IMG/VR virus record: IMGVR_UViG_2875703104_000004
Reading direction: 5' to 3' (one strand)
Length of the DNA stretch: 64,000 bases
Origin: a virus
Lineage: Duplodnaviria; Heunggongvirae; Uroviricota; Caudoviricetes
Numbering within the stretch: the first letter of the stretch is position 1; the number at the start of each line of letters is the position of its first letter. The notes under the pieces are model-generated. The model saw nothing but the letters and a program-made list of their open reading frames with translations, did not search any database and was not told where the DNA came from. Positions 4,982 through 52,586 of the stretch are shown piece by piece. A program made the position numbers and the translations under genes.

Positions 4982-4992
4982 AAGGGGGATGT

Positions 4993-5963: not shown

Positions 5964-5970
5964 GGACGAT

Positions 5971-6711: not shown

Positions 6712-6726
6712 TCCGGAGAGTCAGCG

Positions 6727-20941: not shown

Positions 20942-22646
20942 AACGAACGCCTGTCCTGATTGATGTGAACGGCGTTCCGCTTCGGGAGAGCCTCAGCTAC
21001 AACGGGGGCGGCGCAGGATTTGGCGGGCAAATGGCGGAGTGGTTGCCACCGGCGCAGAGTGCCGATGCGGCCCTGCTGCCCGCGTTGCGTCTGGGGAATG
21101 CCCGGGCAGATGATCTGGTGCGCAATAACGGGATAGCGGCCAATGCGGTGGCCCTGCATAAGGATCACATTGTCGGGCATATGTTTCTTATCAGCTACCG
21201 CCCGAACTGGCGCTGGCTGGGGATGCGGGAGACCGCGACAAAAAGTTTTGTCGATGAGGTGGAGGCGGCCTGGTCAGAATACGCAGAAGGGATGTTTGGT
21301 GAGATCGACGTGGAAGGGAAACGCACGTTTACGGAATTTATCCGTGAAGGTGTGGGCGTTCATGCGTTTAACGGCGAAATCTTTGTGCAGCCGGTCTGGG
21401 ATACGGAGAGCACGCAACTGTTTCGTACGCGTTTTAAAGCCGTGAGTCCGAAACGGGTGGACACGCCAGGACACGGTATCGGGAACCGTTTTCTGCGGGC
21501 CGGTGTGGAGGTTGATCGATATGGCCGTGCCGTTGCGTACCATATCTGTGAGGATGATTTTCCTCGCTCCGGGAGTGGACGATGGGAACGGATCCCGCGT
21601 GAACTTCCCACCGGGCGTCCGGCCATGCTGCATATTTTCGAGCCGGTGGAGGACGGGCAGACCCGTGGGGCCAACCAGTTTTACAGCGTCATGGAACGGC
21701 TGAAGATGCTCGATTCCCTGCAGGCAACACAGCTTCAGTCGGCCATTGTCAAGGCGATGTATGCAGCGACAATTGAAAGTGAACTGGATACCGAAAAGGC
21801 CTTTGAATATATCGCCGGTGCGCCGCAGGGGCAGAAGGATAATCCGCTTATTAATATTCTGGAGAAGTTCTCCAGCTGGTATGACACGAATAACGTGACG
21901 CTGGGCGGTGTCAAAATTCCGCACCTTTTCCCTGGTGATGATCTGAAACTACAGACAGCGCAGGATTCAGACAATGGATTTTCTGCGCTTGAACAGGCGC
22001 TGCTGCGGTATATCGCCGCCGGTCTTGGCGTTTCCTACGAACAGTTGTCCCGTGATTACTCGAAGGTCAGTTACTCAAGTGCCCGCGCCTCCGCCAATGA
22101 GTCGTGGAACAGGCGCTGCTGCGGTATATCGCCGCCGGTCTTGGCGTTTCCTACGAACAGTTGTCCCGTGATTACTCGAAGGTCAGTTACTCAAGTGCCC
22201 GCGCCTCCGCCAATGAGTCGTGGCGCTATTTTATGGGGCGGCGAAAATTTATTGCGTCCCGGCTGGCCACGCAGATGTTTTCCTGCTGGCTGGAAGAGGC
22301 ACTTCTGCGGGGGATTATCCGTCCGCCACGGGCACGTTTTGATTTTTATCAGGCGCGTTCAGCCTGGTCACGGGCTGAGTGGATTGGTGCCGGAAGAATG
22401 GCCATTGACGGGCTCAAGGAGGTTCAGGAATCGGTGATGCGTATTGATTCCGGACTGAGCACGTATGAGAAAGAGCTGGCGCTGATGGGCGAGGATTATC
22501 AGGACATTTTCCGCCAGCAGGTCAGGGAATCTGCAGAGCGGGAAAAAGCCGGACTCTCACGTCCGGTGTGGATAGCGCAGGCGTATCAGCAGCAGATAGC
22601 GGAGAGTCGCAGGCCGGAAGAGGAGACAACACCACGTGAGACGTAA
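20938..22646 (+). pseudogene. B: portal protein (lambda gpB-like), frame broken by the same 116-bp tandem duplication
   Basis: ORF 20938..22437 plus C-terminal ORF 22104..22646 in another frame; paralogue of 1..1244. Confidence 0.8.
21991..22222. repeat. tandem direct duplication, 2 x 116 bp, same sequence as 589-820
   Basis: gaacaggcgctgctgcgg...gagtcgtg at 21991-22106 and 22107-22222. Confidence 0.9.
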
Positions 22647-24689
22647 TCTTTCACACATTATTGCAGCAGCATTCAATGAACCGCTGCTTCTGGAGCCCGC
22701 CTATGCGCGGGTTTTCTTTTGCGCGCTCGGGCGCGAGATGGGGGCAGCAAGTCTTTCGGTACCGCAACAGCAGGTACAGCTTGATGCTCCCGGGATGCTG
22801 GCTGAAACGGACGAGTACATGGCCGGAGGTAAACGACCGGCCCGTGTTTACCGGGTGGTGAACGGTATTGCGGTACTGCCGGTGACCGGCACGCTGGTGC
22901 ACCGGCTGGGGGGGATGCGGCCATTTTCCGGAATGACTGGCTATGACGGCATTGTCGCCTGTCTTCAGCAGGCAATGGCAGATAGCCAGGTGCGGGGCAT
23001 ACTGCTGGACATTGACAGTCCGGGCGGGCAGGCCGCCGGCGCGTTTGACTGCGTTGACATGATTTACCGCCTCCGGCAGCAGAAGCCGGTCTGGGCACTG
23101 TGCAATGACACGGCCTGTTCTGCAGCCATGCTGCTGGCGTCGGCCTGCTCCCGACGGCTGGTTACCCAGACATCCCGTATCGGCTCCATTGGCGTGATGA
23201 TGAGCCATGTCAGCTATGCCGGTCATCTGGCGCAGGCCGGTGTGGATATCACGCTGATTTACTCAGGGGCGCACAAGGTGGATGGCAATCAGNGGTGCAC
23301 CGGCTGGGTGGTATGCGGCCATTTTCCGGAATGACAGGCTATGACGGCATTGTCGCCTGTCTTCAGCAGGCAATGGCGGATAGCCAGGTGCGGGGCGTAC
23401 TGCTGGACATTGACAGTCCGGGCGGGCAGGCCGCCGGCGCGTTTGACTGCGCTGACATGATTTACCGCCTCCGTCAGCAGAAGCCGGTCTGGGCACTGTG
23501 CAATGACACGGCCTGTTCTGCAGCCATGCTGCTGGCGTCGGCCTGCTCCCGACGGCTGGTTACCCAGACATCCCGTATCGGCTCCATTGGCGTGATGATG
23601 AGCCATGTCAGCTATGCCGGTCATCTGGCGCAGGCCGGTGTGGATATCACGCTGATTTANNCNGGGGCGCACAAGGTGGATGGCAATCAGTTTGAAGCGT
23701 TGCCGGCAGAGGTTCGCCAGGACATGCAGCAGCGGATTGATGCGGCGCGCCGGATGTTTGCCGAAAAAGTGGCGATGTATACCGGTCTGTCTGTTGATGC
23801 CGTCACGGGAACAGAGGCTGCCGTTTTTGAAGGTCAGTCCGGCATTGAGGCCGGGCTGGCGGATGAATTAATCAATGCGTCGGATGCCATCAGTGTGATG
23901 GCCACGGCGCTGAACAGTAATGTCAGAGGAGGCACTATGCCGCAATTAACTGCAACGGAAGCCGCCGCTGCCGTTTTTGAAGGTCAGTCCGGCATTGAGG
24001 CCGGGCTGGCGGATGAATTAATCAATGCGTCGGATGCCATCAGTGTGATGGCCACGGCGCTGAACAGTAATGTCAGAGGAGGCACTATGCCGCAATTAAC
24101 TGCAACGGAAGCCGCCGTGCAGGAGAACCAGCGAGTGATGGGGATCCTGACATGCCAGGAAGCGAAAGGACGTGAACAGCTTGCCACGATGCTGGCAGGG
24201 CAACAGGGCATGAGCGTTGAACAGGCCCGGGCGATTCTGGCCGCGGCGGCACCGCAGCAGCCGGTGGCATCCGCACAGAGTGAAGCCGATCGCATTATGG
24301 CGTGTGAAGAAGCGAACGGTCGTGAACAACTGGCAGCAACGCTGGCGGCGATGCCGGAGAGGACGGTGGAAAAAGCCCGCCCGATCCTGGCTGCTTCACC
24401 GCAGGCGAATGCCGGGCCCTCACTTCGTGATCAGATCATGGCACTGGATGAGGCAAAAGGGGCTGAGGCGCAGGCTGAACAGCTGGCTGCCTGCCCGGGA
24501 ATGACTGTGGAGAGCGCCCGGGCTGTGCTGGCTGCGGGATCAGGTAAGGCAGAACCGGTCTCTGCATCCACAACCGCCCTGTTTGAACATTTCATGGCGA
24601 ACCATTCACCGGCTGCGGTCCAGGGGGGCGTGTCACAGGCGTCAGAAGACGGTGATGCGGACGTGAAAATGCTCATGGCCATGCCATGA
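22636..24689 (+). CDS. C: prohead protease / scaffold (gpC-like), second copy, with internal duplications
   Basis: Same motifs as 1234..2739; frame interrupted at n 23293 where 22896-23292 is repeated at 23294-23690; additional in-frame 150-bp tandem duplication at 23821-24120. Confidence 0.7.
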
Positions 24690-24725
24690 AGTCAGTGCTG
24701 AACATCAATACGAGGTTTTAACAAT

Positions 24726-25073
24726 ATGGTGACGAAAACCATCACTGAACAGCGTGCGGAAGTACGTATTTTTGCCGGTAATGATCCGGCTCACACCGCC
24801 ACAGGCAGCAGCGGGATTTCCTCGGCAACACCGGCACTGACACCCCTGATGCTGGATGGGGCCACCGGGAAACTGGTGGTCTGGGACGGACAGAAAGCCG
24901 GTAGTGCGGTTGGCATACTGGTACTGCCGCTTGAAGGCACAGAGGCGGTGCTGACGTATTACAAGTCGGGGACCTTTGCGACGGAGGCAATCCGCTGGCC
25001 TGAAAGTGTGGATGAACACAAAAAGGCCAACGCCTTTACCGGCAGTGCCCTGAGTCACGCGGCGCTGCCGTAA
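24726..25073 (+). CDS. D: head decoration protein (gpD-like)
   Basis: Paralogue of 2776..3123 with a few substitutions. Confidence 0.8.
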   Translation: MVTKTITEQRAEVRIFAGNDPAHTATGSSGISSATPALTPLMLDGATGKLVVWDGQKAGSAVGILVLPLEGTEAVLTYYKSGTFATEAIRWPESVDEHKKANAFTGSALSHAALP

Positions 25074-25130
25074 CACGTTATCAGGCCACCGCGTTGGCCT
25101 GACTGATTTCTTAATGAAAGGAACTGATTT

Positions 25131-26159
25131 ATGGGATTGTTTACGACCCGCCAGTTACTCGGTTATACCGAACAAAAAGTGAAATTCCGTGCGCTGTTTC
25201 TGGAGCTGTTTTTCCGCCGTACGGTGAATTTCCACACCGAAGAGGTGATGCTGGACAAAATTACCGGAAAAACGCCGGTGGCGGCCTATGTCTCCCCGAT
25301 CGTTGAAGGAAAAGTGCTTCGCCATCGCGGTGGTGAAACCCGCGTGTTACGTCCGGGCTACGTCAAGCCCAAACACGAATTTAATTACCAGCAGGCGGTT
25401 GAGCGCCTTCCTGGTGAAGATCCGGCTCAGCTGAACGACCCGGCCTACCGTCGTCTGCGTATCATTACCGATAACCTCAAACAGGAAGAGCACGCCATTG
25501 TCCAGGTGGAAGAAATGCAGGCGGTGAATGCCGTGCTGTATGGCAAATACACCATGGAAGGGGATCAGTTTGATACTGTCGAGGTGGATTTCGGGCGCTC
25601 TGAAGGAAATAACATTGAGCAGGCTGACGGTAAAAAATGGTCTGAGCAGGACCGTGATACGTTTGATCCGACGCATGATATTGACCTCTACTGCGATCAG
25701 GCCAGCGGCCTTGTGAATATCGCCATTATGGACGGTACGGTCTGGCGTCTGCTGAATGGCTTTAAGCTGTTCCGCGAAAAACTGGATACCCGTCGCGGCT
25801 CAAATTCACAACTCGAAACGGCAGTGAAAGACCTGGGGGCGGTGGTGTCCTTCAAGGGGTATTACGGCGATCTGGCCATTGTGGTGGCGAAAACGTCTTA
25901 TGTGGCAGAGGACGGTACCGAAAAACGTTATCTGCCGGAGGGCACACTGGTCCTGGGGAATACGGCAGCAGAGGGCATTCGTTGCTATGGTGCCATTCAG
26001 GATGCGCAGGCGTTGTCCGAAGGTGTGGTGGCCTCTTCCCGTTATCCGAAACACTGGCTGACCGTGGGCGATCCGGCCCGTGAATTCACCATGACGCAGT
26101 CCGCACCGCTGATGGTGCTGCCGGATCCGGATGAGTTTGTGGTGGTACAGGTGAAATAA
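25131..26159 (+). CDS. E: major capsid protein (gpE-like)
   Basis: 342-aa paralogue of 3181..4209. Confidence 0.9.
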   Translation: MGLFTTRQLLGYTEQKVKFRALFLELFFRRTVNFHTEEVMLDKITGKTPVAAYVSPIVEGKVLRHRGGETRVLRPGYVKPKHEFNYQQAVERLPGEDPAQLNDPAYRRLRIITDNLKQEEHAIVQVEEMQAVNAVLYGKYTMEGDQFDTVEVDFGRSEGNNIEQADGKKWSEQDRDTFDPTHDIDLYCDQASGLVNIAIMDGTVWRLLNGFKLFREKLDTRRGSNSQLETAVKDLGAVVSFKGYYGDLAIVVAKTSYVAEDGTEKRYLPEGTLVLGNTAAEGIRCYGAIQDAQALSEGVVASSRYPKHWLTVGDPAREFTMTQSAPLMVLPDPDEFVVVQVK

Positions 26160-26165
26160 TCCGTG

Positions 26166-26196
26166 AGCGGGGGCGAAATGCCCCCGTGTCTTTTTT
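26166..26196 (+). terminator. terminator-like hairpin downstream of E (second copy)
   Basis: Same gcggggg-cgaaatg-cccccg hairpin plus TTTTTT as at 4216-4246. Confidence 0.55.
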
Positions 26197-26210
26197 CACA
26201 GGAGGCTGAG

Positions 26211-26594
26211 ATGGCAACAAAAGAAGAAAATCTGAATCGTCTTCGTCAACTGGCTGGCCTGCTGGGGCGCGAGGCGGATATGTCGGGGAGTGCTGCGGAT
26301 ATTGCTCAACGTGTGTCTGAGTGGGAAGAGGAGCTTGCTGTTTCCCCGGAGGGCATTATGCACTCTGATGAGAGCGGGGCTGATCAAAATCACACAGACG
26401 ATGGTGAGCAGTTGCACAACACTGATGCTACGGATGATGTTAAAGCGGTCCGTGTGCGGAAATGCCTGCATGTGATGGGGTATTGCCCGGAGACAGGCCG
26501 TCCCGTTGAACTGACGTACCGGGGCATGCGTGTTATGGTGCCATCACCACTGGCGACAGCCATGATACAGCACGGAACGGCTGAGCATGCGTGA
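26211..26594 (+). CDS. FI: FI-like DNA packaging protein, diverged C-terminus
   Basis: Starts MATKEENLNRL; acidic; position between E and FII. Confidence 0.65.
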   Translation: MATKEENLNRLRQLAGLLGREADMSGSAADIAQRVSEWEEELAVSPEGIMHSDESGADQNHTDDGEQLHNTDATDDVKAVRVRKCLHVMGYCPETGRPVELTYRGMRVMVPSPLATAMIQHGTAEHA

Positions 26595-26940
26595 TTTTCA
26601 GAATGCCTTTGATGCTGCCCTTGCCGGGGTGGACAGCACGATTGTTGAAGTGATGGGGATCCGTGCGCAGTTCACCTCCGGAGCACAACGTGGCGGCGAA
26701 GTTCAGGGGGTTTTTGACGATCCGGAGTCGCTGGGTTTTGCCGGTGGCGGGGTCCGTATTGAAGGAAGCAGCCCGTCATTATTTGTGCGGACGGATACGG
26801 TGCGTGCCGTGCGGCGTGGTGACACGCTGACCATTAACGGCGAGATGTTCTGGGTGGATCGTGTTTCTCCGGATGACGGGGGAAGCTGTTATCTCTGGCT
26901 CAACCGTGGGCAACCACCCGCTGTTAACCGGCGACGATAA
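26587..26940 (+). CDS. FII: head-tail joining protein FII
   Basis: Paralogue of 4628..4981. Confidence 0.85.
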   Translation: MRDFQNAFDAALAGVDSTIVEVMGIRAQFTSGAQRGGEVQGVFDDPESLGFAGGGVRIEGSSPSLFVRTDTVRAVRRGDTLTINGEMFWVDRVSPDDGGSCYLWLNRGQPPAVNRRR

Positions 26941-26955
26941 ACGCAGGGTGAAATT

Positions 26956-27489
26956 ATGGCGATAAAAGGGCTTGATCAGGCGATTGATAATCTGAGCCGG
27001 GTTCGTAAAAACGCCATTCCGGCGGCTTCAGCAATGGCCATTAACCGCGTGGCCACAACGGCGATTAATCAGTCTTCATCACAGGTTGCCCGGGAGACAA
27101 AGGTACGCCGGAAACTGGTAAAGGAACGGTCCAGACTGAAACGGGCGACGGTCAGAAATCCGAACGCAAAAATTATCGTTAACCGCGGTGATCTTCCAGT
27201 GATTAAGCTGGGGATCAGGATGCTGGGCCGTCGTCCGAACAGCATACTTAAAGCCGGTCAGCATCGGTATCAGCGGGCATTCATTCAGCGATTAAAAAAC
27301 GGTCGCTGGCATGTCATGCAGCGTGTGGCCGGGAAAAACCGTTACCCTATTGATGTGGTGAAAATCCCGATGGCGGCCCCACTGAAACAGGCGTTTGATG
27401 AGAATGTTGACCGTATCCGGCGTGAACGCCTGCCCGGAGAACTGGCATCCGCGCTGAAACAACAACTGAGGATTGCGATAAAACGATGA
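26956..27489 (+). CDS. Z: minor tail protein Z
   Basis: Paralogue of 4993..5571. Confidence 0.85.
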   Translation: MAIKGLDQAIDNLSRVRKNAIPAASAMAINRVATTAINQSSSQVARETKVRRKLVKERSRLKRATVRNPNAKIIVNRGDLPVIKLGIRMLGRRPNSILKAGQHRYQRAFIQRLKNGRWHVMQRVAGKNRYPIDVVKIPMAAPLKQAFDENVDRIRRERLPGELASALKQQLRIAIKR

Positions 27490-27881
27490 AACACACTGAC
27501 ATTCGTGCCGCAGTGCTGGATGCACTCGAGCAGCATGAACACGGGGCGACGCTGTTTGATGGTCGCCCCGTTGTTTTTGACGAAGAGGATTTTCCTGCGA
27601 TCGCGGTTTATCTGACGGATGCAGAGTATACCGGTGAAGAGCTGGATGCAGATACCTGGCGGGCCACGCTGCATATTGAGGTGTTTTTACCGGCACAGGT
27701 ACCGGATTCAGAGCTTGATCAGTGGATGGAAAGCCGGATTTACCCGGCGATGACCGCGATCCCGGCACTGGCAGGACTGATTACCACGATGGTTACGCAG
27801 GGCTATGAGTATCGTCGTGATGACGATATGGCGTTATGGAGTTCTGCAGATCTGACTTATTCCATTACATACGAGATGTGA
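27486..27881 (+). CDS. U: minor tail protein U
   Basis: Paralogue of 5568..5963. Confidence 0.85.
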
Positions 27882-27888
27882 GGACGAT

Positions 27889-28635
27889 ATGGCAACACCA
27901 AATCCCCTTGAGCCGGTAAAAGGTGCCGGTACCACTCTGTGGGTTTACAACGGCAAGGCTGATGCTTATGCAAACCCGTTGTCAGACGATGGCTGGCAGC
28001 GACTGGCTAAGGTGAAGGATCTGACGCCGGGCGAGATGACGGCTGAACCCTACGATGATAACTACCTGGATGATGAAGACGCGGACTGGACCGCGACCGG
28101 GCAGGGACAGAAATCTGCAGGTGATACCAGTTTTACGCTGGCCTGGAAACCGGGAGAGGAAGGCCAGAAAGGGCTTATAGGCTGGTTTGAAAGCGGCGAT
28201 GTCCGGGCCTATAAAATCCGTTTTCCGAATGGCACGGTGGATGTGTTTCGTGGCTGGGTCAGCAGTATCGGTAAGGCCGTGACGGCGAAAGAAGTGATCA
28301 CCCGCACGGTGAAAGTCACTAACGTGGGTAAACCTTCTGTAGCGGAAGAACGCAGCAAAATTACGCCGGTCACTGCGATTAAGGTGACGCCGACAGGTAC
28401 GGTTGAAAAAGGGAAAACAACCACCCTGACCGTTACTGTGGAACCGGAAAATGCAACGGATAAGACATTCAGGGCGATTTCCGCCGATCCATCAAAAGCC
28501 ACCATTAGCGTGAAAGATATGACGATTACTGTGGCGGGGGTTAAGGATGGAAAAGTCAGCATCCCTGTGATTTCCGGTAATGGTCAGTTTGCTGCGGTGG
28601 CTGAAATTACCGTTAATAATGTGCCGGGTGGCTAA
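27889..28635 (+). CDS. V: major tail protein V with Ig-like C-terminal domain
   Basis: Paralogue of 5971..6711; the C-terminal Ig-like part is more diverged than the tube domain. Confidence 0.85.
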
Positions 28636-28653
28636 AGAGCTGAGAGATAAGCG

Positions 28654-29085
28654 ATGTTCCTGAAAACAGAACAATTTGAATATAACGGTGTATCCGTCAC
28701 GCTTTCTGAGCTGTCTGCGCTGCAGCGTATTGAGCATCTTGCCCTCCTGAAACGGCGGGCAGAAGAGGCTGAAGCCAGCGGCAACCTGCAGGTGAGTGTG
28801 GAAGATCTTGTCAGAACCGGCGCGTTTCTGGTGGCGATGTCCCTGTGGCATAACCATCCACAGAAAACGCAGTCACCGTCAATGAATGAGGCCGTGATGA
28901 AGATAGAGCAGGAAGTGCTCACCACCTGGCCTGCCGATGCCATTGCCCGGGCGGAAGACGTGGTGTTGTGCCTGTCCGGGATGATCGAAGCTGTTCGTCC
29001 GGATACTGATATTACTGAAGTGGCGAAAAATAACACGCTGACTGATGATGATTTTTCTGCGGGAAAGTCTTCGACGGCGAGCTGA
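28654..29085 (+). CDS. G: tail assembly chaperone G
   Basis: Paralogue of 6727..7149; GGGAAAG slippery heptamer at 29061-29067. Confidence 0.8.
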   Translation: MFLKTEQFEYNGVSVTLSELSALQRIEHLALLKRRAEEAEASGNLQVSVEDLVRTGAFLVAMSLWHNHPQKTQSPSMNEAVMKIEQEVLTTWPADAIARAEDVVLCLSGMIEAVRPDTDITEVAKNNTLTDDDFSAGKSSTAS

Positions 29086-29111
29086 ACTTTGCCCTCAGAC
29101 TGGCGCGTGAG

Positions 29112-29525
29112 ATGGGGAGACCCGACTGGCGCGCCATGCTTGCCGGGATGACATCCACCGAATATGCCGACTGGCACCGTTTTTACCGCACGCATTATTT
29201 TCAGGATACCCAGCTGGATATGCATTTTTCCGGGCTGACGTACGCTGTACTCAGCCTGTTTTTTTGCGATCCGGATATGCATCCCTCTGATTTCAGTCTG
29301 CTTGTCCCCCGGCATGAGGAAGAGCAGGTGGAGAGGCCGGATGAGGACAAAATGCTGATGCAGAAAGCGGCAGGACTTGCCGGAGGCGTCCGGTTCGGTG
29401 GGGACGGAGGGCGCGATATTTTATCGTCTGTGGATGTGGCGGATGTCATGGTGGATGATGCCGCATTAATGATGGCTTCAGCGGGGATTCCGGGAGGTGT
29501 GAGATATGTCCCAGCCGGTTGGTGA
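29112..29525 (+). CDS. T: T segment of the G-T frameshift fusion
   Basis: -1 frame relative to G, entered at the GGGAAAG at 29061-29067. Confidence 0.75.
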   Translation: MGRPDWRAMLAGMTSTEYADWHRFYRTHYFQDTQLDMHFSGLTYAVLSLFFCDPDMHPSDFSLLVPRHEEEQVERPDEDKMLMQKAAGLAGGVRFGGDGGRDILSSVDVADVMVDDAALMMASAGIPGGVRYVPAGW

Positions 29526-32217
29526 TCTTGTTATTGACCTGAGTCTGGATGCTGTCCGTTTCGATGAGCAGATGAGCCGGGTAAGGCGTCATTTTTCAGG
29601 TCTGGATACCGACGCCAGAAAAACCGCCAGTGCTGTTGAACAGGGCCTGAGCCGCCAGGCGCTGGCTGCACAAAAAGCCGGGATTTCCGTCGGGCAGTAT
29701 AAAGCGGCCATGCGAACCCTGCCCGCACAGTTTACGGATATCGCCACGCAGCTTGCCGGTGGTCAGAATCCCTGGCTGATCCTGCTGCAACAGGGCGGTC
29801 AGGTGAAGGACTCCTTCGGCGGGATGATCCCCATGTTCAGGGGGCTTGCCGGTGCGATCACCCTGCCGATGGTCGGGGTCACCTCGCTGGCGGTGGCGAC
29901 AGGTGCGCTGGTGTACGCCTGGTACCAGGGAGATTCCACGCTTTCAGCGTTTAATAAAACCCTGGTTCTTTCCGGTAATCAGTCCGGACTGACTGCCGAT
30001 CGCATGCTGACGCTCTCCAGAGCCGGACAGGCCGCAGGGCTGACGTTTAACCAGGCGAGTGAGTCACTGGCAGCCCTGGTGAATGCCGGTGTGCGTGGTG
30101 GTGAACAGTTTGATGCCATCAACCAGAGTGTCGCGCGTTTTGCTTCTGCATCCGGTGTGGAGGTGGACAAGGTTGCAGAGGCTTTCGGAAAACTGACCAC
30201 TGACCCGACGTCGGGGCTGATTGCGATGGCGAAGCAGTTCCATAACGTGACGGCGGAGCAGATTGCGTATGTTGCTCAGTTGCAGCGTTCCGGCGATGAA
30301 GCCGGGGCATTGCAGGCGGCGAACGAGGCCGCAACGAAAGGGTTTGATGACCAGACCCGACGCTTGAAAGAGAACATGGGCACGCTGGAAACCTGGGCAG
30401 ACAGGACAGCACGGGCATTCAAATCCATGTGGGATGCGGTGCTGGATATTGGTCGTCCTGATACCGCGCAGGAGATGCTGATTAAGGCAGAGGCCGCGTT
30501 TAAGAAAGCGGACGATATCTGGAATCTGCGCAAGGATGATTATTTTGTTAACGATGAAGCGCGGGCGCGTTACTGGGATGATCGTGAAAAGGCCCGTCTT
30601 GCGCTTGAAGCCGCCCGAAAGAAGGCTGAGCAGCAGAGTCAACAGGACAAAAATGCGCAGCAGCAGAGCGATACCGAAGCGTCACGGCTGAAATATACCG
30701 AAGAGGCGCAGAAGGCTTACGAACGGCTGCAGACGCCGCTGGAGAAATATACCGCCCGTCAGGAAGAACTGAACAAGGCACTGAAAGACGGGAAAATCCT
30801 GCAGGCGGATTACAACACGCTGATGGCGGCGGCGAAAAAGGATTATGAAGCGACGCTGAAAAAGCCGAAACAGTCCGGCGTGAAGGTGTCTGCGGGCGAT
30901 CGTCAGGAAGACAGTGCTCATGCTGCCCTGCTGACGCTTCAGGCNGAACTCCGGACGCTGGAGAAGCATGCCGGAGCAAATGAGAAAATCAGCCAGCAGC
31001 GCCGGGATTTGTGGAAGGCGGAGAGTCAGTTCGCGGTACTGGAGGAGGCGGCGCAACGTCGCCAGCTGTCTGCACAGGAGAAATCCCTGCTGGCGCATAA
31101 AGATGAGACGCTGGAGTACAAACGCCAGCTGGCTGCACTTGGCGACAAGGTTACGTATCAGGAGCGCCTGAACGCGCTGGCGCAGCAGGCGGATAAATTC
31201 GCACAGCAGCAACGGGCAANNNNNNNNNNNNNNNNNNNNNTGGCGCATAAAGATGAGACGCTGGAGTACAAACGCCAGCTGGCTGCACTTGGCGACAAGG
31301 TTACGTATCAGGAGCGCCTGAACGCGCTGGCGCAGCAGGCGGATAAATTCGCACAGCAGCAACGGGCAAAACGGGCCGCCATTGATGCGAAAAGCCGGGG
31401 GCTGACTGACCGGCAGGCAGAACGGGAAGCCACGGAACAGCGCCTGAAGGAACAGTATGGCGATAATCCGCTGGCGCTGAATAACGTCATGTCAGAGCAG
31501 AAAAAGACCTGGGCGGCTGAAGACCTGCTTCGCGGGAACTGGATGGCAGGCCTCAGGTCCGGCTGGAGTGAGTGGGAAGAGAGTGCCACGGACAGTATGT
31601 CGCAGGTAAAAAGTGCAGCCACGCAGACCTTTGACGGTATTGCACAGAATATGGCAGCGATGCTGACCGGCAGCGAACAGAACTGGCGTGGTTTCACCCG
31701 TTCTGTGCTGTCCATGCTGACAGAGATTTTTCTGAAGCAGGCGATGGTGGGGATTGTCGGGAGTATCGGCAGCGCTATTGGCGGGGCTGTTGGTGGCGGC
31801 GCATCCGCGTCAGGCGGTACAGCCATTCAGGCCGCTGCGGCGAAATTCCATTTTGCAACCGGAGGATTTACGGGAACCGGCGGCAAATATGAGCCAGCGG
31901 GGATTGTTCACCGTGGTGAATTTGTCTTCACGAAGGAGGCAACCAGCCGGATTGGTGTCGGCAACCTGTATCGTCTGATGCGCGGGTATGCGGAAGGTGG
32001 TTATGTCGGCGGTGCCGGAAGTCCGGCGCAGATGCGGCGGGCCGAAGGTATTAATTTTAATCAGAACAATCACGTGGTGATTCAGAACGACGGTATCAAC
32101 GGACAGGCGGGGTCGCAGCTGATGAAGGCGGTGTATGACATGGCCCGCAAGGGGGCACAGGATGAACTCCGGCTGCAGTTGCGTGATGGCGGTCTGTTAT
32201 CAGGGAGCGGTCGATGA
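29506..32217 (+). CDS. H: tail tape measure protein H (contains an N-run and a redundant block)
   Basis: 903-aa ORF paralogous to 7558..10054; N-run at 31220-31240 flanked by duplicated ~132-bp blocks. Confidence 0.8.
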   Translation: MSQPVGDLVIDLSLDAVRFDEQMSRVRRHFSGLDTDARKTASAVEQGLSRQALAAQKAGISVGQYKAAMRTLPAQFTDIATQLAGGQNPWLILLQQGGQVKDSFGGMIPMFRGLAGAITLPMVGVTSLAVATGALVYAWYQGDSTLSAFNKTLVLSGNQSGLTADRMLTLSRAGQAAGLTFNQASESLAALVNAGVRGGEQFDAINQSVARFASASGVEVDKVAEAFGKLTTDPTSGLIAMAKQFHNVTAEQIAYVAQLQRSGDEAGALQAANEAATKGFDDQTRRLKENMGTLETWADRTARAFKSMWDAVLDIGRPDTAQEMLIKAEAAFKKADDIWNLRKDDYFVNDEARARYWDDREKARLALEAARKKAEQQSQQDKNAQQQSDTEASRLKYTEEAQKAYERLQTPLEKYTARQEELNKALKDGKILQADYNTLMAAAKKDYEATLKKPKQSGVKVSAGDRQEDSAHAALLTLQXELRTLEKHAGANEKISQQRRDLWKAESQFAVLEEAAQRRQLSAQEKSLLAHKDETLEYKRQLAALGDKVTYQERLNALAQQADKFAQQQRAXXXXXXXXAHKDETLEYKRQLAALGDKVTYQERLNALAQQADKFAQQQRAKRAAIDAKSRGLTDRQAEREATEQRLKEQYGDNPLALNNVMSEQKKTWAAEDLLRGNWMAGLRSGWSEWEESATDSMSQVKSAATQTFDGIAQNMAAMLTGSEQNWRGFTRSVLSMLTEIFLKQAMVGIVGSIGSAIGGAVGGGASASGGTAIQAAAAKFHFATGGFTGTGGKYEPAGIVHRGEFVFTKEATSRIGVGNLYRLMRGYAEGGYVGGAGSPAQMRRAEGINFNQNNHVVIQNDGINGQAGSQLMKAVYDMARKGAQDELRLQLRDGGLLSGSGR

Positions 32218-32543
32218 AAACCTTTCGCTGGAAAGTGAAGCCGGATATGGAGGTGAACTCGCAGCCATCGGTGCGTGAAGTGCGTTTTGGTGACGGGTAC
32301 TCACAGCGTATGGCGGCAGGGCTGAATGCTGACCTGAAAACATACAGGGTGACGCTTTCCGTGACCCGGGAGGAGGCCCGGCATCTGGAAGCGTTCCTGG
32401 CAGAGCACGGTGGCTGGAAGGCATTTTTGTGGAAGCCACCCTATGCATACCGGCAGATAAAGGTGACCTGTGCCGGGTGGTCTGCGCGGGTCGGGATGTT
32501 GCGCGTTGAGTTCAGCGCGGAGTTTAAGCAGGTGGTGAACTGA
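32214..32543 (+). CDS. M: minor tail protein M
   Basis: Paralogue of 10051..10380. Confidence 0.85.
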   Translation: MKTFRWKVKPDMEVNSQPSVREVRFGDGYSQRMAAGLNADLKTYRVTLSVTREEARHLEAFLAEHGGWKAFLWKPPYAYRQIKVTCAGWSARVGMLRVEFSAEFKQVVN

Positions 32544-33178
32544 TGCAGGATATTCGCGAAGAAAGTCTGAACGAGTCGGTTAAGTCAGAGCAGTCACCGC
32601 GGGTGGTACTCTGGGAAATCGACCTGACGGTACAGGGTGGTGAGCGGTATTTTTTCTGTAATGAGCTGAATGAAAAAGGGGAGCCGGTCACCTGGCAGGG
32701 GCGTAAGTATGAGGCATACCCGATTGACGGCAGCGGCTTTGAGATGAACGGCCGGGGCAGCAGTGCCAGACCGTCGCTGACGGTGTCGGTCCGCCGCCGG
32801 GTGTATGCCCGTTTTCTGGATGCGGTGAATTTCGTTGCGGGCAATCCGGAGGCGGACCCGGAGCAGGAGCTGAGTGACCGCTGGGTGGTGGAGCAGATGT
32901 CGCAGCTGACAGCCATGACGGCCTCGTTTGTGCTGGCTACACCGACCGAGACGGACGGGGCGCTGTTTCCCGGTCGCATCATGCTGGCGAACACCTGTAT
33001 GTGGGATTACCGGGGAGATGAATGCGGGTATAACGGTCCTGCGGTGGCGGATGAGTTCGATAAACCCACCACGGATATCCGTAAGGACAGATGCAGCAAG
33101 TGCATGCGCGGGTGTGAACTGCGCAGGAATGTCGGCAATTTTGGCGGTTTCCTTTCCATTAATAAACTTTCGCAGTAA
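32543..33178 (+). CDS. L: minor tail protein L (21 codons shorter than the other copies)
   Basis: 211-aa ORF; lacks the segment NLFGLVTGMAEDLQSLVGATV present in the other L copies. Confidence 0.75.
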   Translation: MQDIREESLNESVKSEQSPRVVLWEIDLTVQGGERYFFCNELNEKGEPVTWQGRKYEAYPIDGSGFEMNGRGSSARPSLTVSVRRRVYARFLDAVNFVAGNPEADPEQELSDRWVVEQMSQLTAMTASFVLATPTETDGALFPGRIMLANTCMWDYRGDECGYNGPAVADEFDKPTTDIRKDRCSKCMRGCELRRNVGNFGGFLSINKLSQ

Positions 33179-33374
33179 ATCCCGGTTTATGAGGCAGTCT
33201 GTGTTATGTATCTTCTTTCGGGTGGGTACAGGGCAGTGCGCGATTTCTGGCGCAGGCAGATTGATAAAAGGGCCGCTGAGAGAATCAGCGCCAGTCAGTC
33301 AGCCGGAAGCAAACCCGAAGATCCGCTCATTCCGTAGTCACTTTCTTGACAACACCTTTCAACGAGAAAATCCC

Positions 33375-33620
33375 ATGTCAGAAATCACATCCCTGGTCAC
33401 TGCTGAGGCAGTGAAGGAAGTCCTGCGCTCTGAAGAAGTCCNGAGNGCACTGAAACAGAAACTCCGCCAGAACCTTGAGNCGCGTCTTGATGCAGAAGTG
33501 GATGCCATTCTGGATGAGCTGCTGGGCGTACCAGCGGTTCCGGAGCCGGAAGGTATCGCGGGTGACGGGAGTGCTTCAGATGGCGGTGAACCCACACCTG
33601 ACAGCGACATGATGATGTAA
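33375..33620 (+). CDS. hypothetical small acidic protein
   Basis: 82-codon ORF starting [17 protein letters not shown] with a strongly acidic C-terminus; contains ambiguous bases; no match recognised. Confidence 0.3.
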
Positions 33621-33696
33621 GCCTGCGCAAGGGACCATCGGTGTGTGCCGGTGGTCTTTATATTGTTGTGAGCTTCCGGATAACGGGAGACGGGGT

Positions 33697-34062
33697 ATGT
33701 ACCAGATGGAAAAAATCACAACAGGTGTGTCATACACCACGTCAGCGGTGGGAACGGGCTACTGGTTCCTGCAGTTGCTGGACAGGGTTTCCCCGTCTCA
33801 GTGGGCGGCAATAGGCGTGCTGGGGAGTCTGCTGTTTGNNNNNNNNNNNNNNNNNNNNNAAAAAATCACAACAGGTGTGTCATACACCACGTCAGCGGTG
33901 GGAACGGGCTACTGGTTCCTGCAGTTGCTGGACAGGGTTTCCCCGTCTCAGTGGGCGGCAATAGGCGTGCTGGGGAGTCTGCTGTTTGGGCTGCTGACAT
34001 ATCTGACTAACCTGTATTTCAAAATCAGAGAGGACCGGCGTAAGGCGGCGCGGGGAGAGTAA
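33697..34062 (+). CDS. S: class II holin / pinholin (phage 21 S-like); ORF inflated by a redundant block around an N-run
   Basis: [26 protein letters not shown]...[40 protein letters not shown]: two TM segments, charged C-terminus, dual-start M..M; 33711-33838 repeated after the N-run 33839-33859. Confidence 0.75.
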
Positions 34063-34066
34063 AGCG

Positions 34067-34417
34067 ATGAAGAAAAAATACGAACTGGTTGTTAAAGGGA
34101 TAAATAATTACCCGGATAAGATTACTGTTACTGTGGCACTGGAAGTTGGTGGGTATCCGTCACTGTTGTTGCCAGATGTGGCGATTAGTCTTGACCGTAC
34201 TGAAGGTGCCACGCTGGAGTTTTACGAAGCTGAGGCGAAAAAGCAGGCGAAGCAGTTTTTCATGGATGTTGCTGCCGGGTTATGTGAAGGGAACGAACCG
34301 TTGCCGGAAAAGCGCCCCGTGATTTTAGAGGCGCAGAATGTATGGATAACCTACAAAGGAAATCTACCGGGAAGAATTACTGGTTCTCTGAAGACTCCAC
34401 CGGAATCACAACCTTAA
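34067..34417 (+). CDS. hypothetical protein between holin and endolysin
   Basis: 116-aa ORF starting 5 bp after the holin stop; no signal peptide or TM segment; no family recognised. Confidence 0.5.
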   Translation: MKKKYELVVKGINNYPDKITVTVALEVGGYPSLLLPDVAISLDRTEGATLEFYEAEAKKQAKQFFMDVAAGLCEGNEPLPEKRPVILEAQNVWITYKGNLPGRITGSLKTPPESQP

Positions 34418-34480
34418 TTCACTGACCGGAACAGATAAACCTGTCCGTGGGCAGAAACCGATAAATCCTGATAAATATCC

Positions 34481-35014
34481 ATGAACGCAAAAATCAGATA
34501 CGGCCTGTCGGCTGCCGTTCTGGCGCTGATTGCCGCTGGTGCGCCTGCGCCTGACATTCTCGACCAGTTTCTGGATGAAAAGGAAGGTAACCACACCACG
34601 GCATACCGTGATGGTGCGGGGATCTGGACCATCTGCCGTGGTGCCATCATGGTGGATGGTAAACCTGTTGTTCCAGGCATGAAGTTGTCGAAGGCAAAAT
34701 GCGACCGGGTTAACGCCATTGAGCGTGATAAGGCGCTGGCATGGGTGGAGAAAAACATCAGAGTGCCACTGACCGAACCCCAGAAAGCGGGGATCGCGTC
34801 ATTCTGTCCGTACAACATTGGTCCCGGTAAGTGTTTCCCGTCGACGTTTTACAGACGAATTAATGCAGGTGATCGAAAAGGTGCCTGCGAAGCGATTCGC
34901 TGGTGGATTAAGGACGGTGGCAGAGACTGCCGTATTCGTTCAAACAACTGTTACGGTCAGGTATCCCGTCGCGACCAGGAGAGTGCGCTGGCGTGCTGGG
35001 GAATTGACAGATAA
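34481..35014 (+). CDS. R: SAR endolysin (T4-lysozyme-like, GH24)
   Basis: N-terminal weakly hydrophobic Ala/Gly-rich segment YGLSAAVLALIAAGAPAP; catalytic E-x8-D-x5-T in EGNHTTAYRDGAGIWT. Confidence 0.8.
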   Translation: MNAKIRYGLSAAVLALIAAGAPAPDILDQFLDEKEGNHTTAYRDGAGIWTICRGAIMVDGKPVVPGMKLSKAKCDRVNAIERDKALAWVEKNIRVPLTEPQKAGIASFCPYNIGPGKCFPSTFYRRINAGDRKGACEAIRWWIKDGGRDCRIRSNNCYGQVSRRDQESALACWGIDR

Positions 35015-35105
35015 GCAGAATATTTTGCTGAAAAATGCGGTTTGCTCACACGGACGGATAACACGAAATCCTGCGAACTGACAAAAACTAAGTGAATAAA
35101 AGTAA

Positions 35106-35140
35106 AAACCCCGTTTGTTGGCTGCAAGCGGGGTTTTGTG
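35106..35140 (+). terminator. terminator-like hairpin downstream of the endolysin
   Basis: aaccccg...cggggtt stem followed by TTTTGTGTTT. Confidence 0.4.
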
Positions 35141-35173
35141 TTTCCTGACTCTGGAAAAGTCAAAGGAGAAAGT

Positions 35174-35311
35174 GTGTTTGATTTTAGCAAACTGATTCGG
35201 GAGATTCGAGTGATGGCTGAAAAATTATCCACCTGGAAGTTCATTCTTATCTGGCTGGTGTTTGTGATTATGGCCTCCGGTTATTTCATCGGTCAGATAC
35301 GCTGGTGGTGA
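35174..35311 (+). CDS. hypothetical 45-aa single-pass membrane peptide
   Basis: GTG start 5 nt after [50 protein letters not shown]; stop 1 nt before the Rz ATG. Confidence 0.4.
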
Positions 35312-35312
35312 A

Positions 35313-35807
35313 ATGAACCGCGTACTGTGCGTGGTCATCATTGCCCTGCTGGTGGCCTGTGGTGCGCTTAGTCTGGGGCTGAATCATTACCGTGATAACG
35401 CCATAACCTACAAAGCCCAGCGCGACAAAAATGTCAGAGAACTGAAGCTGGCGAACGCGGCAATTACTGACATGCAGATGCGTCAGCGTGATGTTGCTGC
35501 GCTCGATGCAAAATACTCGAGGGAATTAGCCGATGCGAGAGCTGAAAATGAAACTCTTCGCGCTGACGTTGCCGCTGGTCGTAAGCGCCTGCGTATCAAC
35601 GCCACCTGTCCAGGTCCCGTGCGTGAAGCCACCGGTACCGCCCGCGTGGATAATGCAACCGGCCCCCAACTGGCAGACACCGCTGAACGGGATTATTTCA
35701 TCCTCAGAGAACGGCTGATGACAATGCAGAAGCAGCTGGAAGGGGCGCAGGAATATATCCGCACTCAGTGCACTAAGCTGGCTTTTTATTATCCGGAGGA
35801 TACATGA
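35313..35807 (+). CDS. Rz: i-spanin Rz
   Basis: N-terminal TM segment then [42 protein letters not shown], coiled-coil rich, as in lambda Rz. Confidence 0.85.
35533..35718 (+). CDS. Rz1: o-spanin Rz1, embedded in the +1 frame of Rz
   Basis: [15 protein letters not shown] lipobox, then Pro-rich [27 protein letters not shown]. Confidence 0.8.
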
Positions 35808-36028
35808 AGAAATTACGGGTAACCGTAGAACCTTTTCAGGGAACAATTCCGTTCCGTATTTTGCAGCGTGGTCGTGTTCTTGTTGAAGGTTCGTTCAGTG
35901 GTAAATGTACGCAATTACACTCCCGGACCTTTCAGGTGAATGCCACGAATGAAGAGCTAACCGTGGAGTGTACGATGAATGCCGCTAAATGCCGCATGGT
36001 ATCCGCTGCATTACAGCCAGTGTGTTGA
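35804..36028 (+). CDS. hypothetical protein overlapping the Rz stop
   Basis: 74-aa ORF whose ATG overlaps the Rz stop (ATGA); no signal peptide; no family recognised. Confidence 0.35.
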
Positions 36029-36226
36029 GCGACCTTATTATCCATGCGCGGTATTGTCGCCGTATTCCTGCATTAACAGAGACCGCAGCCCGACAGGGAG
36101 ACTCCTCTGCGCGAGTGTGCGGGGATAATCAAAAACGATACACACCGGGGTTTACCGCGTTAACGGAGCGCGGCGTTGTCCCCTCATAGTCGCCTGTCCG
36201 GTGCGATGGTGGAAGAAACCGAACGT

Positions 36227-36427
36227 TCATTTCTCGTTATTTGTCATGCTGGTCGGGCGCAGATGCGTTGCATCTGTTGCCAGCCTTCTCCTGCAGGCTT
36301 CAATAACCCACGCTGAAAAGTTACCGGACCCTTTATGCTCAAGGGCTATGTTGATTTGTTCAATTATGTGATTGGGGAAACGGATATTGCGGGTTGTGGT
36401 TCTGCGGGTCCGGTTTTTCGATGACAT
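36227..36427 (-). CDS. small basic protein, possible ribbon-helix-helix DNA-binding protein
   Basis: 66-aa ORF MSSKNRTRRTTTRNIRFPNHIIEQINIALEHKGSGNFSAWVIEACRRRL with AGGA RBS 7 nt upstream; divergent from the HNH gene. Confidence 0.35.
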   Translation of the reverse strand: MSSKNRTRRTTTRNIRFPNHIIEQINIALEHKGSGNFSAWVIEACRRRLATDATHLRPTSMTNNEK

Positions 36428-36468
36428 ATTTATTTCCTTTACTGATTGCCATATGACGGGGATTTTAC

Positions 36469-36834
36469 ATGGCTGAGCTTCGTACACTCCAGAGCAGAAT
36501 CAAAACACTGAATACCCGACGGGTGAATATTCTGAAGGGGGAACAGCGTCGTGTCAGTGGCAGTGCACGTGTTTCCCTCAAGCGTCATATCTGGCTGAGG
36601 GACGCCGGGCAGTGCTGTATCTGTGGTCGTGTGGTTGACCTCTGTGACAGTGAACTCGATCACCGAATTGCACTTCAGTTCGGTGGTGGTAATGAGGAGA
36701 CGAATCTCTGGACGCTCTGTACCGAATGCCATCGACAAAAGTCTGCTCGTGAAGCGGCGGGTGGTATGCCGGACCCGACGCTGCCGGAGGTGTCCGGAGG
36801 TAGTGACAGAGCGGACGACATCATCGGACTGTAA
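36469..36834 (+). CDS. HNH endonuclease, packaging-associated type
   Basis: CCICG..(n)..DHRIALQFGG..NLWTLCTECHRQK is an HNH zinc-finger nuclease motif; located immediately upstream of the terminase genes. Confidence 0.8.
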   Translation: MAELRTLQSRIKTLNTRRVNILKGEQRRVSGSARVSLKRHIWLRDAGQCCICGRVVDLCDSELDHRIALQFGGGNEETNLWTLCTECHRQKSAREAAGGMPDPTLPEVSGGSDRADDIIGL

Positions 36835-36926
36835 CCCGACCCGGGGGGGGTATCATCCGGCGTAAAAAACGATCGCTTTGGACACCGCGCCCCCTCTCAC
36901 GCAGAGAAAAAATTCCCGTTTCAGGG

Positions 36927-37052
36927 CAGTTAACATGTTAACTGGCTGCCCGGGCATTTTTGCGGTTTTTATCTTTATTATTCAGTTTGTTGTGCGGAAA
37001 AAATGTTAACAGGCTTTTTCAGCAAATGTTAACCAGGCAGCAGTTAACATTT
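36927..37052. promoter_or_regulatory. cluster of GTTAAC-containing repeats (candidate cos / terminase recognition region)
   Basis: 18-bp palindrome cagttaacatgttaactg at 36927-36944, aaatgttaac at about 37001 and 37024, inverted copy gttaacattt at about 37043. Confidence 0.45.
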
Positions 37053-50553: not shown

Positions 50554-51408
50554 TGCAGGATATTCACGAAGAAAGTCTGAACGAGTCGGTTAAATCAGAG
50601 CAGTCACCGCGGGTGGTACTCTGGGAAATCGACCTGACGGTACAGGGCGGTGAGCGGTATTTTTTCTGTAATGAGCTGAATGAAAAAGGGGAGCCGGTCA
50701 CCTGGCAGGGGCGTAAGTATGAGGCATACCCGATTGACGGCAGCGGCTTTGAGATGAACGGCCGGGGCAGCAGTGCCAGACCGTCGCTGACGGTGTCCAA
50801 TCNGTGGTGAGCGGTATTTTTTCTGTAATGAGCTGAATGAAAAAGGGGAGCCGGTCACCTGGCAGGGGCGTAAGTATGAGGCATACCCGATTGACGGCAG
50901 CGGCTTTGAGATGAACGGCCGGGGCAGCAGTGCCAGACCGTCGCTGACGGTGTCCAATCTGTTCGGTCTGGTCACCGGGATGGCGGAAGACCTGCAGAGT
51001 CTGGTGGGGGCCACGGTGGTCCGCCGCCGGGTGTATGCCCGTTTTCTGGATGCGGTGAATTTCGTTGCGGGCAATCCGGAGGCGGACCCGGAGCAGGAGC
51101 TGAGTGACCGCTGGGTGGTGGAGCAGATGTCGCAGCTGACAGCCATGACGGCCTCGTTTGTGCTGGCTACACCGACCGAGACGGACGGGGCGCTGTTTCC
51201 CGGTCGCATCATGCTGGCGAACACCTGTATGTGGGATTACCGGGGAGATGAATGCGGGTATAACGGTCCTGCGGTGGCGGATGAGTTCGATAAACCCACC
51301 ACGGATATCCGTAAGGACAGATGCAGCAAGTGCATGCGCGGGTGTGAACTGCGCAGGAATGTCGGCAATTTTGGCGGTTTCCTTTCCATTAATAAACTTT
51401 CGCAGTAA
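50553..51408 (+). CDS. L: minor tail protein L (contains a redundant block around n 50803)
   Basis: L N-terminus to about codon 84, n at 50803, then L restarts from about codon 33 and runs to the LSINKLSQ stop at 51408. Confidence 0.7.
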
Positions 51409-52576: not shown

Positions 52577-52586
52577 ATCCCGGTTT

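Follow-up and report, generated by a model that had tools for sequence, protein, structure and literature searches.

Type I toxin–antitoxin loci in which an antisense RNA overlaps the 5' part of the toxin message include hok/sok, ldr/rdl, symE/symR, and ibs/sib. Small regulators of phage lysis include S107 of lambda, S71 of phage 21, RI of T4, and LydB of P1. Mu gp25 (releasin; PMC9239132) is a further small membrane protein that tunes lysis, and lambda bor and lom as well as HK97 gp15 are counted among the morons of lambdoid phages (Juhala et al. 2000, as cited in PMC4104026). These systems are compared here with a 45-codon open reading frame (ORF) located at positions 35174–35311 of a virus DNA of 64,000 nt (Caudoviricetes, IMG/VR record IMGVR_UViG_2875703104_000004; this whole stretch is referred to as the window). 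The ORF is situated between the endolysin gene R and the i-spanin gene Rz.

Judged by its conservation, the ORF is a genuine gene that selection maintains and that encodes a tiny peptide of the inner membrane. The best explanation of the locus as a whole, for which we see about an even chance, is that of a late-transcribed membrane peptide carried in a portable, type I toxin–antitoxin-like cassette of temperate-phage late operons. The gene is the payload of this cassette (terminator, leader of approximately 35 nt with a small stem-loop, strong Shine–Dalgarno (SD) sequence, GTG, ORF), which occurs in temperate phages of Enterobacterales and Pseudomonas and has been inserted here between R and Rz in a late operon that depends on Q. 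Only late transcription that resists terminators (Q-modified) would produce the peptide mRNA, along with that of the lysis genes, and translation of Rz would start from an SD sequence inside the last peptide codons. A constitutive antisense RNA of approximately 74 nt is predicted to cover the SD sequence of the peptide gene, to keep the peptide off in lysogens, and to set a threshold late in the cycle. The product would be a tail-anchored inner-membrane protein of 45 residues with a cytoplasmic amphipathic N-terminal helix, one transmembrane helix, and only RWW outside. As the least secure step of the proposal, the most likely target of this peptide would be the inner membrane of the host, or a protein of that membrane, and not any one holin or spanin of the phage; at this locus the peptide would thereby shift the timing of lysis. 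The parts of the putative cassette are as follows:

35015–35103, plus strand: AT-rich non-coding spacer (39% GC) from the stop codon of R to the hairpin.
35105–35137, no strand assigned: hairpin of the intrinsic-terminator type, flanked by an A-tract and a T-tract, at the head of the cassette (plus-strand scan: 14 pairs, 6 of them GC).
35138–35173, plus strand: leader consisting of T-tract, small stem-loop (35141–35149 with 35159–35171), and SD sequence.
35174–35311, plus strand: gene for the 45-residue peptide (PHROG 6632), with GTG start, N-terminal amphipathic helix (predicted to be cytoplasmic), WKF interface, transmembrane helix, and C-terminal RWW.
35181–35209, minus strand: predicted antisense promoter with an extended −10 element TGcTAAAAT (35189 to 35181) and a weak −35 element TCGAAT (35209 to 35204).
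Within 35098–35175 (roughly 35174 to 35101), minus strand: predicted cis-antisense RNA of approximately 74 nt, starting near the start codon and ending at the hairpin.

All coordinates of the ORF given in a preliminary description of this DNA proved exact. The GTG start codon (35174–35176) is in frame with TGA (35309–35311) and opens 45 sense codons; it is preceded by AGGAG (35164–35168) at a spacing of 5 nt, and the single base A35312 separates the TGA from the ATG of Rz at 35313. Several loci have a stop codon in frame a few codons upstream of the ORF, so the GTG at 35174 is the first possible start. Conservation in related prophages, proposed in that description as a check, was found across genera for both length and start. 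Among 55 distinct DNA variants the frame is kept in all, and the start codon is GTG in 54 and TTG in one. Pairwise dN/dS ratios (nonsynonymous to synonymous substitution rates, Nei–Gojobori) among diverged homologues amount to 0.04–0.29, with synonymous sites near saturation; one near-identical pair (four differences) gives 0.85, a value that is uninformative. The summed ratio of nonsynonymous to synonymous divergence (pN/pS) is 0.35 in the frame of the ORF versus 0.57–1.66 in the other five frames, and purifying selection extends to conservative substitutions within the transmembrane segment. Distant homologues share the signature S-K-h-h-(R/K)-E-h-R-x-M-x-x-(K/R)-L-x-x-W-(K/R)-F, followed by the transmembrane segment and often ending in (R/K)WW.

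The single-pass membrane topology with one hydrophobic helix, likewise proposed beforehand, is supported by a maximum 19-residue Kyte–Doolittle mean of 2.13 (residues 24–42) and by an AlphaFold2 model in which residues 4–44 form a single continuous helix (mean predicted local distance difference test score 88). Residues 1–22 carry a net charge of +2 and have a hydrophobic moment of 0.56. The charged hydrophilic C-terminal cytoplasmic tail of holins is absent, since the charges are N-terminal and only RWW follows the transmembrane helix, and the peptide matches no holin family in Pfam. Neither a periplasmic segment nor a lipobox, as in spanins, is present, and intact Rz and Rz1 genes are found downstream.

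The preliminary description contained neither the 159-nt non-coding stretch between R and the ORF, with its hairpin, nor the promoter-like antisense motif inside the ORF. In every homologue examined, the ORF is preceded by the same order of elements: A-tract, GC-rich hairpin, T-tract, spacer, SD sequence, and start codon. The hairpin is located approximately 35–45 nt upstream of the start in all of them, including the one from a Pseudomonas phage, and the same hairpin-first architecture is seen in four metagenomic or genomic loci at approximately 40% identity. Because both flanks are T-rich on their own strand, the terminator looks bidirectional; the homologous hairpin of the 86-24 prophage (L003) was called as a minus-strand terminator. 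RNAalifold gave compensatory changes in 5 of the 10 hairpin pairs. When 18 diverse loci were aligned, 91.9% of the hairpin cells were paired, and double (compensatory) changes occurred in 6 of 11 pairs; none of 500 shuffles reached the observed values, and pairing dropped to approximately 65% when one arm was slid by one column. The spacer together with the hairpin is conserved in 2,027 of 5,426 complete Escherichia coli genomes, whatever gene comes next.

Within the leader, pairing of the inner stem CCUUG/CAAGG reaches 84.7% among the homologues, and 4 of its 5 pairs show double changes. An SD-occluding leader hairpin was considered as a translational switch and not used as evidence: single-sequence folds equal those of shuffles (z −0.7 to +0.8), and the covariation of the inner stem is modest. 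A DNA pattern built from the leader alone recovered 120 IMG/VR loci, and in these, except for a few matches due to chance or degradation, the next gene is either the 45-aa gene or an unrelated 60-aa gene with one transmembrane helix. No promoter-like site was reported on the plus strand between 33500 and 36500 by the promoter scan. The sequence 5' of the hairpin is not conserved between contexts, and only 36 nt lie between terminator and start codon. Because no sense promoter was detectable, a terminator lies ahead of the gene, and the upstream sequence is unconserved, sense expression would be confined to late transcription. A second element of the A-tract/GC-hairpin/T-tract type (AAAACCCCGGTATCTGCTGATACCGGGGTTT) was noted at 54118–54148 of the window, in a 340-nt AT-rich gap between a 226-aa ORF (53228–53908) and a 1230-aa ORF (54252–57944), apparently in the tail region; it is not followed by a small transmembrane ORF and could be a terminator or a small RNA.

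On the minus strand, the extended −10 element TGcTAAAAT corresponds to codons 3–6 of the peptide gene. Each of the 47 distinct leader variants has TG plus TAAAAT, TAATAT, or TAAGAT, the final base falling on ORF position +7. The 60-aa gene, which has an unrelated N-terminus and the same leader, shows TATACT or TACACT at the same +7 offset (22 of 22 variants); the chance of a hexamer this good at one given position was calculated as roughly 0.3–1.6%. A strict scan reported TAGTCA-18-TATACT together with a minus-strand terminator in the 86-24 prophage, and TTCGCA-18-TAAAAT with TG in the Pseudomonas phage YMC11/02/R656 (L230). Synonymous divergence (pS) is 0.34 in codons 2–13 versus 0.81 in the transmembrane part. 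Among the 55 variants, Ser5 is always AGC (one of six codons) and Arg12 always CGA, with neighbouring codons free; Asp3 is GAT and never GAC, and the third base of codon 4 is T throughout, whether the residue is F, I, or L. The predicted RNA would begin with a single-stranded 5' tail able to pair with the start codon and the SD sequence; a stem-loop and an A-rich linker would come next, and the terminator with its U tail would form the 3' end. Its predicted fold in the window has −21.9 kcal mol−1 (z −4.1), and the same two-hairpin fold is predicted at four loci including the Pseudomonas phage (z −3.6 to −6.4). On this reading, the cassette would probably include an antisense RNA over the start codon and the SD sequence.

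Several points weigh against this antisense arrangement and the toxin–antitoxin-like reading built on it. The −35 element is poor (three of six matches), and the strict scan reported the promoter-like site in only two of the five regions submitted to it (window, L003, L008, L230, L232), the window itself being negative. In the distant homologues L234, L235, and L237 the best −10-like hexamer is found at another offset. Constraint on translation initiation, or recent recombination of a shared leader, could account for the scarcity of synonymous differences at the 5' end. G–U versus A–C mismatches in the helices show no strand bias, and a published table for O157 Sakai (Hfq cross-linking and analysis of cDNA, CRAC) lists no peak at the R–Rz intervals checked, the loci read (Sp12, Sp15) being without the ORF. 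Classical type I toxins have a promoter of their own, and none was seen for the peptide gene. Finally, arrays of two to four small transmembrane ORFs are found behind a single hairpin, and a model with one toxin and one antitoxin leaves these arrays unexplained.

Other RNA candidates were also considered. A search of Rfam with positions 33000–37000 of the window (both strands, E≤1) returned only sub-threshold matches (terminator-like, rimP leader). A minus-strand site reported by the scan inside the ORF (35296 to 35267, CTGACC-18-CATAAT) was rejected, as it is not conserved in Salmonella or E. fergusonii. HnrS (EcOnc10-12) is located downstream of Rz in Sakai Sp12, at the end of a YlcI/YnfO-type gene, and is absent from the window; EcOnc33 (approximately 71 nt) is located inside nanS-p.

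The distribution of the gene was determined at the level of DNA and of protein. At least 80% of the length of the 298-nt insert between R and Rz is present in 871 of the 5,426 E. coli genomes, and the phage collection yielded 65 records by megablast and 53 by protein-level search. Carriers among phages include H-19B, TL-2011c, CP-1639, Rac-SA53, Salmonella and Pseudomonas phages, and many phages encoding Shiga toxin 1 or 2 (Stx1, Stx2). Among E. coli strains, a copy with 100% identity is represented by O157:H7 Z1766. Homologues down to approximately 47% identity were found in E. albertii, E. fergusonii, Salmonella, Citrobacter, Yersinia, Brenneria, Symbiopectobacterium, Providencia, and Dryocola as well as in the Pseudomonas phage YMC11/02/R656. 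The peptide family is narrow, as a hidden Markov model search of 1.84 billion representative proteins gave 41 clusters only.

In lysis cassettes the junction TGAnATG between the peptide stop and the i-spanin start is kept in approximately 120 of 135 loci, and a single nucleotide separates the stop codon from the i-spanin start in all lysis cassettes of E. coli, E. fergusonii, Salmonella, and Citrobacter examined. The partner genes vary. Holins belong to four Pfam families (Phage_holin_2_1, 2_3, 8, and 3_1) and i-spanins to two (PF03245 and DUF2514), and the endolysin position is occupied by two different PF00959 lysozymes, a GH19 enzyme, a 138-aa protein without Pfam hit, or a CHAP-domain protein (Providencia). 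Outside lysis cassettes, Yersinia, Dryocola, Salmonella phage SEN34, and several IMG/VR contigs have the gene in the baseplate module, where it is preceded by a baseplate spike gene with a GpV Apex motif and followed by a module gene without Pfam hit. In Brenneria and Symbiopectobacterium it comes after a gene for an LPD38 polyvalent protein. It is also located in a toxin–antitoxin-rich region before the terminase, in a head module, and, in the Pseudomonas phage, in an island of small ORFs between tail genes. This island (positions 2300–5000 of L230, approximately 2.7 kb) carries small ORFs on both strands between two tail genes, and a 38-aa ORF with one transmembrane helix directly follows the peptide homologue. 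In such non-lysis contexts the next gene has its own SD sequence 8–14 nt away, or no gene is adjacent. In the lambda-type prophage Qin of K-12, R and Rz (rrrQ, rzpQ) overlap with nothing in between. The insert has a GC content of 42.6% versus 54.3% and 54.5% in its neighbours R and Rz. Because of these varied partners and contexts, the lack of an insert in Qin, and the lower GC content, the peptide gene is regarded as mobile cargo and not as a fixed part of one lysis system.

The same R|Rz slot is occupied in other E. coli prophages by an antirepressor gene and/or by other small ORFs with one transmembrane helix: a 60-aa ORF (PHROG 1115), a 43-aa ORF (PHROG 4906, likely of the same family as Sakai ECs_5732 and ECs_5741), a 28-aa ORF ending in AIRWW, and a 50-aa ORF ending in KWW. 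These are like the 45-aa gene in position, in the hairpin-headed island, and in the single transmembrane helix; the 60-aa gene further has leader, SD sequence, and offset of the antisense −10 element in common with it, and the 28-aa and 50-aa ORFs share the C-terminal R/K-W-W. They differ in sequence, and they are likewise uncharacterised. In E. coli EcPF18 (L005), R and Rz are separated by an array of four small one-transmembrane ORFs that starts with an unannotated homologue (approximately 2159–2290) with a TTG start and a different C-terminus, and chimeras exist in which the N-terminus of this type of homologue is joined to a C-terminus resembling the 60-aa family. A second hairpin-headed cassette, encoding a 50-aa peptide (ending in VKWW), is located upstream of the 45-aa gene in E. 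fergusonii (L012, 2685–2907) and is followed by an apparent remnant of the Rz start (ATGTCCCGGG...). This second cassette and the apparent remnant suggest repeated insertion at the same junction.

An internal start within the peptide gene may also be used, and it is listed here together with the flanking lysis genes:

35199–35215, plus strand: possible internal start, GGGAG (35199–35203) followed by ATG at 35213 (Met14), which would give a 32-aa form.
34481–35014, plus strand: R, SAR (signal-arrest-release)-type phage lysozyme, left neighbour of the insert (PF00959, E 5e-24; hydrophobic N-terminus MNAKIRYGLSAAVLALIAAGA).
35313–35807, plus strand: Rz i-spanin (PF03245, E 2e-49), with the SD-like sequence GGTGGTGA inside the last peptide codons plus stop.
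35533–35718, plus strand: Rz1 o-spanin, an ORF embedded in Rz, with a lipoprotein-like N-terminus.

Met14 is ATG in all 55 variants and nearly invariant in distant homologues. The third base of codon 9 is G throughout (CGG, AGG, ATG, AAG, CAG; 55 of 55), and codon 10 is GAG or GGG and never GAA; the G-rich SD-like element before Met14 thus survives amino acid changes (RE, ME, KE, QG). In one lineage with codon 12 changed from CGA to TGA (L226 1462–1599, E. coli draft genomes; 31 blocks of the contig collection) only the 32-aa form is intact. One might speculate from the sequence of this lineage that two isoforms exist, or simply that the gene decays there. Frameshifted copies of the peptide gene were encountered as well (P0026, P0027, P0036).

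Elsewhere around the lysis genes, a gene of the DUF1327/YdfR family (34067–34417; PHROG 406 and 2091, function unknown) is located between holin and endolysin, a placement also seen in many Stx prophages and in K-12 Qin. A 74-aa ORF (35804–36028) overlaps the Rz stop codon (ATGA) just downstream of Rz/Rz1; it matches PHROG 2571 only in the C-terminal part (positions 100–172 of 291) and may be a truncated gene. The holin ORF (33643–34062) contains a run of 21 N (33839–33859) flanked by a direct duplication of approximately 150 nt of holin coding sequence (KITTGVSY...GSLLF twice), which looks like a scaffolding or assembly artefact and not like a real duplication. Another 21-N run occupies 31220–31240, and single Ns are scattered through the window (e.g. 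17234, 23293, 59120–59291). Positions 1–10621 and 21403–32784 are two paralogous structural-gene segments of approximately 10 kb (82–99% identity), and a 405-nt segment occurs three times at 100% identity (32788–33192, 51018–51422, 52186–52590). The window may represent several related prophages in a draft or collapsed assembly; its long-range gene order is therefore not to be trusted.

The existing records were inspected for annotations of the ORF. It is entered as 'putative bacteriophage protein' in CP-1639 (CAH23245.1) and as a hypothetical protein by PGAP (WP_000459346.1), and it matches PHROG 6632 (unknown function) over its full length (residues 1–45 against profile positions 1–45 of 45, E 6.4e-30). 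No family in Pfam, NCBIfam, or PADLOC matches the peptide, and no paper on the ORF was found in the literature searched. K-12 YmfR (e14) was considered as a possible relative and found to be unrelated. The records disagree: most leave the ORF unannotated, some call the 32-aa form, and others instead give an ORF on the opposite strand (CP-1639) or a longer, upstream-extended one. According to the preliminary description, no annotated gene is known between R and Rz in lambda or phage 21; the lambda-type Qin agrees with this, while records of Stx phages already annotate the ORF. As far as can be judged from these sequence records, the ORF is thus known as a hypothetical protein, and its cassette architecture, its spread over late junctions, and the predicted antisense RNA appear to be undescribed in the literature searched.

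Among the alternatives to the toxin–antitoxin-like cassette, a dedicated lysis regulator fares best, although we consider it improbable on balance. The peptide would bind the pinholin or the transmembrane helix of Rz, as an antiholin or spanin regulator, and would be co-translated with Rz via TGA-A-ATG; the hairpin would then be a terminator or mRNA-stability element of the plus strand only, with no antisense RNA. Most of the sampled copies do lie between endolysin and i-spanin, with the 1-nt junction maintained across four genera; the lack of an own promoter implies expression with the lysis genes, and small membrane proteins that tune lysis are known (antiholins, Mu releasin gp25). A dedicated antiholin or spanin regulator should, however, be linked to a particular holin or spanin, and four holin families, several endolysin types, and two i-spanin families were seen instead. 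Homologues also occur in baseplate, tail, head, and pre-terminase positions, some loci having no lysis genes nearby; there is no similarity to lysis families in Pfam or NCBIfam; and the conserved antisense −10 element and the frozen synonymous sites are left unexplained. Consistent pairing with one holin family, or an origin from a holin gene, as expected of an antiholin, was not observed. The preliminary description had suggested an antiholin or spanin regulator. Its basis stands, in that a genuine single-pass membrane peptide gene ends 1 nt ahead of the i-spanin gene; the suggestion itself is weakened by the status of the gene as mobile cargo, without a fixed holin or spanin partner and also present outside lysis cassettes. 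An effect on lysis may nevertheless exist.

Still less probable, in our estimate, is a late accessory, moron-like membrane protein unrelated to lysis, which would, for example, block re-injection or superinfection or neutralise a membrane-bound host defence, and for which the hairpin would provide insulation from transcription that is not antiterminated. The many accessory slots in late regions, often in arrays with other small one-transmembrane genes, the base composition unlike that of the neighbours, and the antirepressor gene found in the same slot of other prophages are in line with such a role. It is opposed by the lack of a detectable promoter, which implies no expression in the lysogen, where exclusion genes usually act, by the lack of a PADLOC match, and by the position of the terminator, which is upstream here and downstream in classical morons.

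It is very unlikely that the ORF is a functionless ribosome-delivery device, which ends in TGA-A-ATG to keep translation of Rz/Rz1 coupled after an insertion had split R from Rz: the single nucleotide between stop and start and the SD-like GGTGGTGA of Rz encoded by the last codons would suit it, but the amino acid sequence, transmembrane segment included, is under strong purifying selection, and the non-lysis homologues precede genes with their own SD sequence or no adjacent gene at all. A chance ORF in a non-coding spacer, suggested by its shortness, its non-ATG start, and the missing annotation in most of the phage records listed, has a practically negligible probability in view of dN/dS, pN/pS, conserved length and start, and homologues down to approximately 40–50% identity in other genera.

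The toxin–antitoxin-like reading can be extended, in a form that we offer tentatively and consider rather doubtful, to an undescribed class of portable, promoterless cassettes. Each would consist of a bidirectional terminator, a cis-antisense RNA of approximately 74 nt with its promoter in the first peptide codons, and at least one small transmembrane peptide, and such cassettes would colonise the junctions of antitermination-driven late operons in temperate phages of hosts ranging from E. coli to Pseudomonas. Through a threshold set by the RNA, the peptide would be made only at full late transcription, where it would time or trigger lysis or would serve for late exclusion.

The cassette is common and sits in an operon that times lysis and hence the release of Shiga toxin. 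If the toxin–antitoxin-like reading is true, late gene expression in phages would gain a new control element in the form of a conserved membrane peptide that carries its own antisense gate, and an uncharacterised family would be added to the short list of phage small membrane proteins. Even a peptide without phenotype would merit consistent annotation of its ORF, given the disagreeing records.

With regard to the known systems, the peptide resembles antiholins and other lysis regulators in being small and membrane-bound, in being encoded in or next to the lysis cassette, and presumably in being expressed late. The possible pair of starts, GTG1 and ATG14, is loosely reminiscent of the dual starts of holin/antiholin genes, the distance being 13 codons instead of two to three. 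It differs from antiholins in that there is no homology, in that it is not encoded within a holin gene or tied to one holin, endolysin, or spanin family, and in that it also occurs outside lysis cassettes.

Like a moron, the cassette is extra DNA between late genes that abut in relatives, with deviant base composition, a membrane protein, and an intrinsic terminator. In contrast to morons, its terminator is upstream of the ORF with nothing between ORF and Rz, no own promoter was found, so that expression in the lysogen is not expected, and the cargo is much smaller.

Type I toxin–antitoxin loci share with it a hydrophobic single-pass peptide of fewer than 60 aa (45 aa here), a short antisense RNA (predicted here) that runs from near the start codon over the SD sequence to an intrinsic terminator, and a location in mobile DNA, sometimes in multiple copies. 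The differences are that peptide and RNA match no known toxin (Pfam, NCBIfam) or antitoxin RNA (Rfam), that the peptide mRNA, for which no promoter was found, relies on the phage late operon, and that several peptides can be arrayed behind one hairpin; moreover, the antisense RNA is a prediction here and toxicity is conjectural. By this comparison, the cassette would work most like a type I toxin–antitoxin module embedded in an operon, outside any described toxin or antitoxin family.

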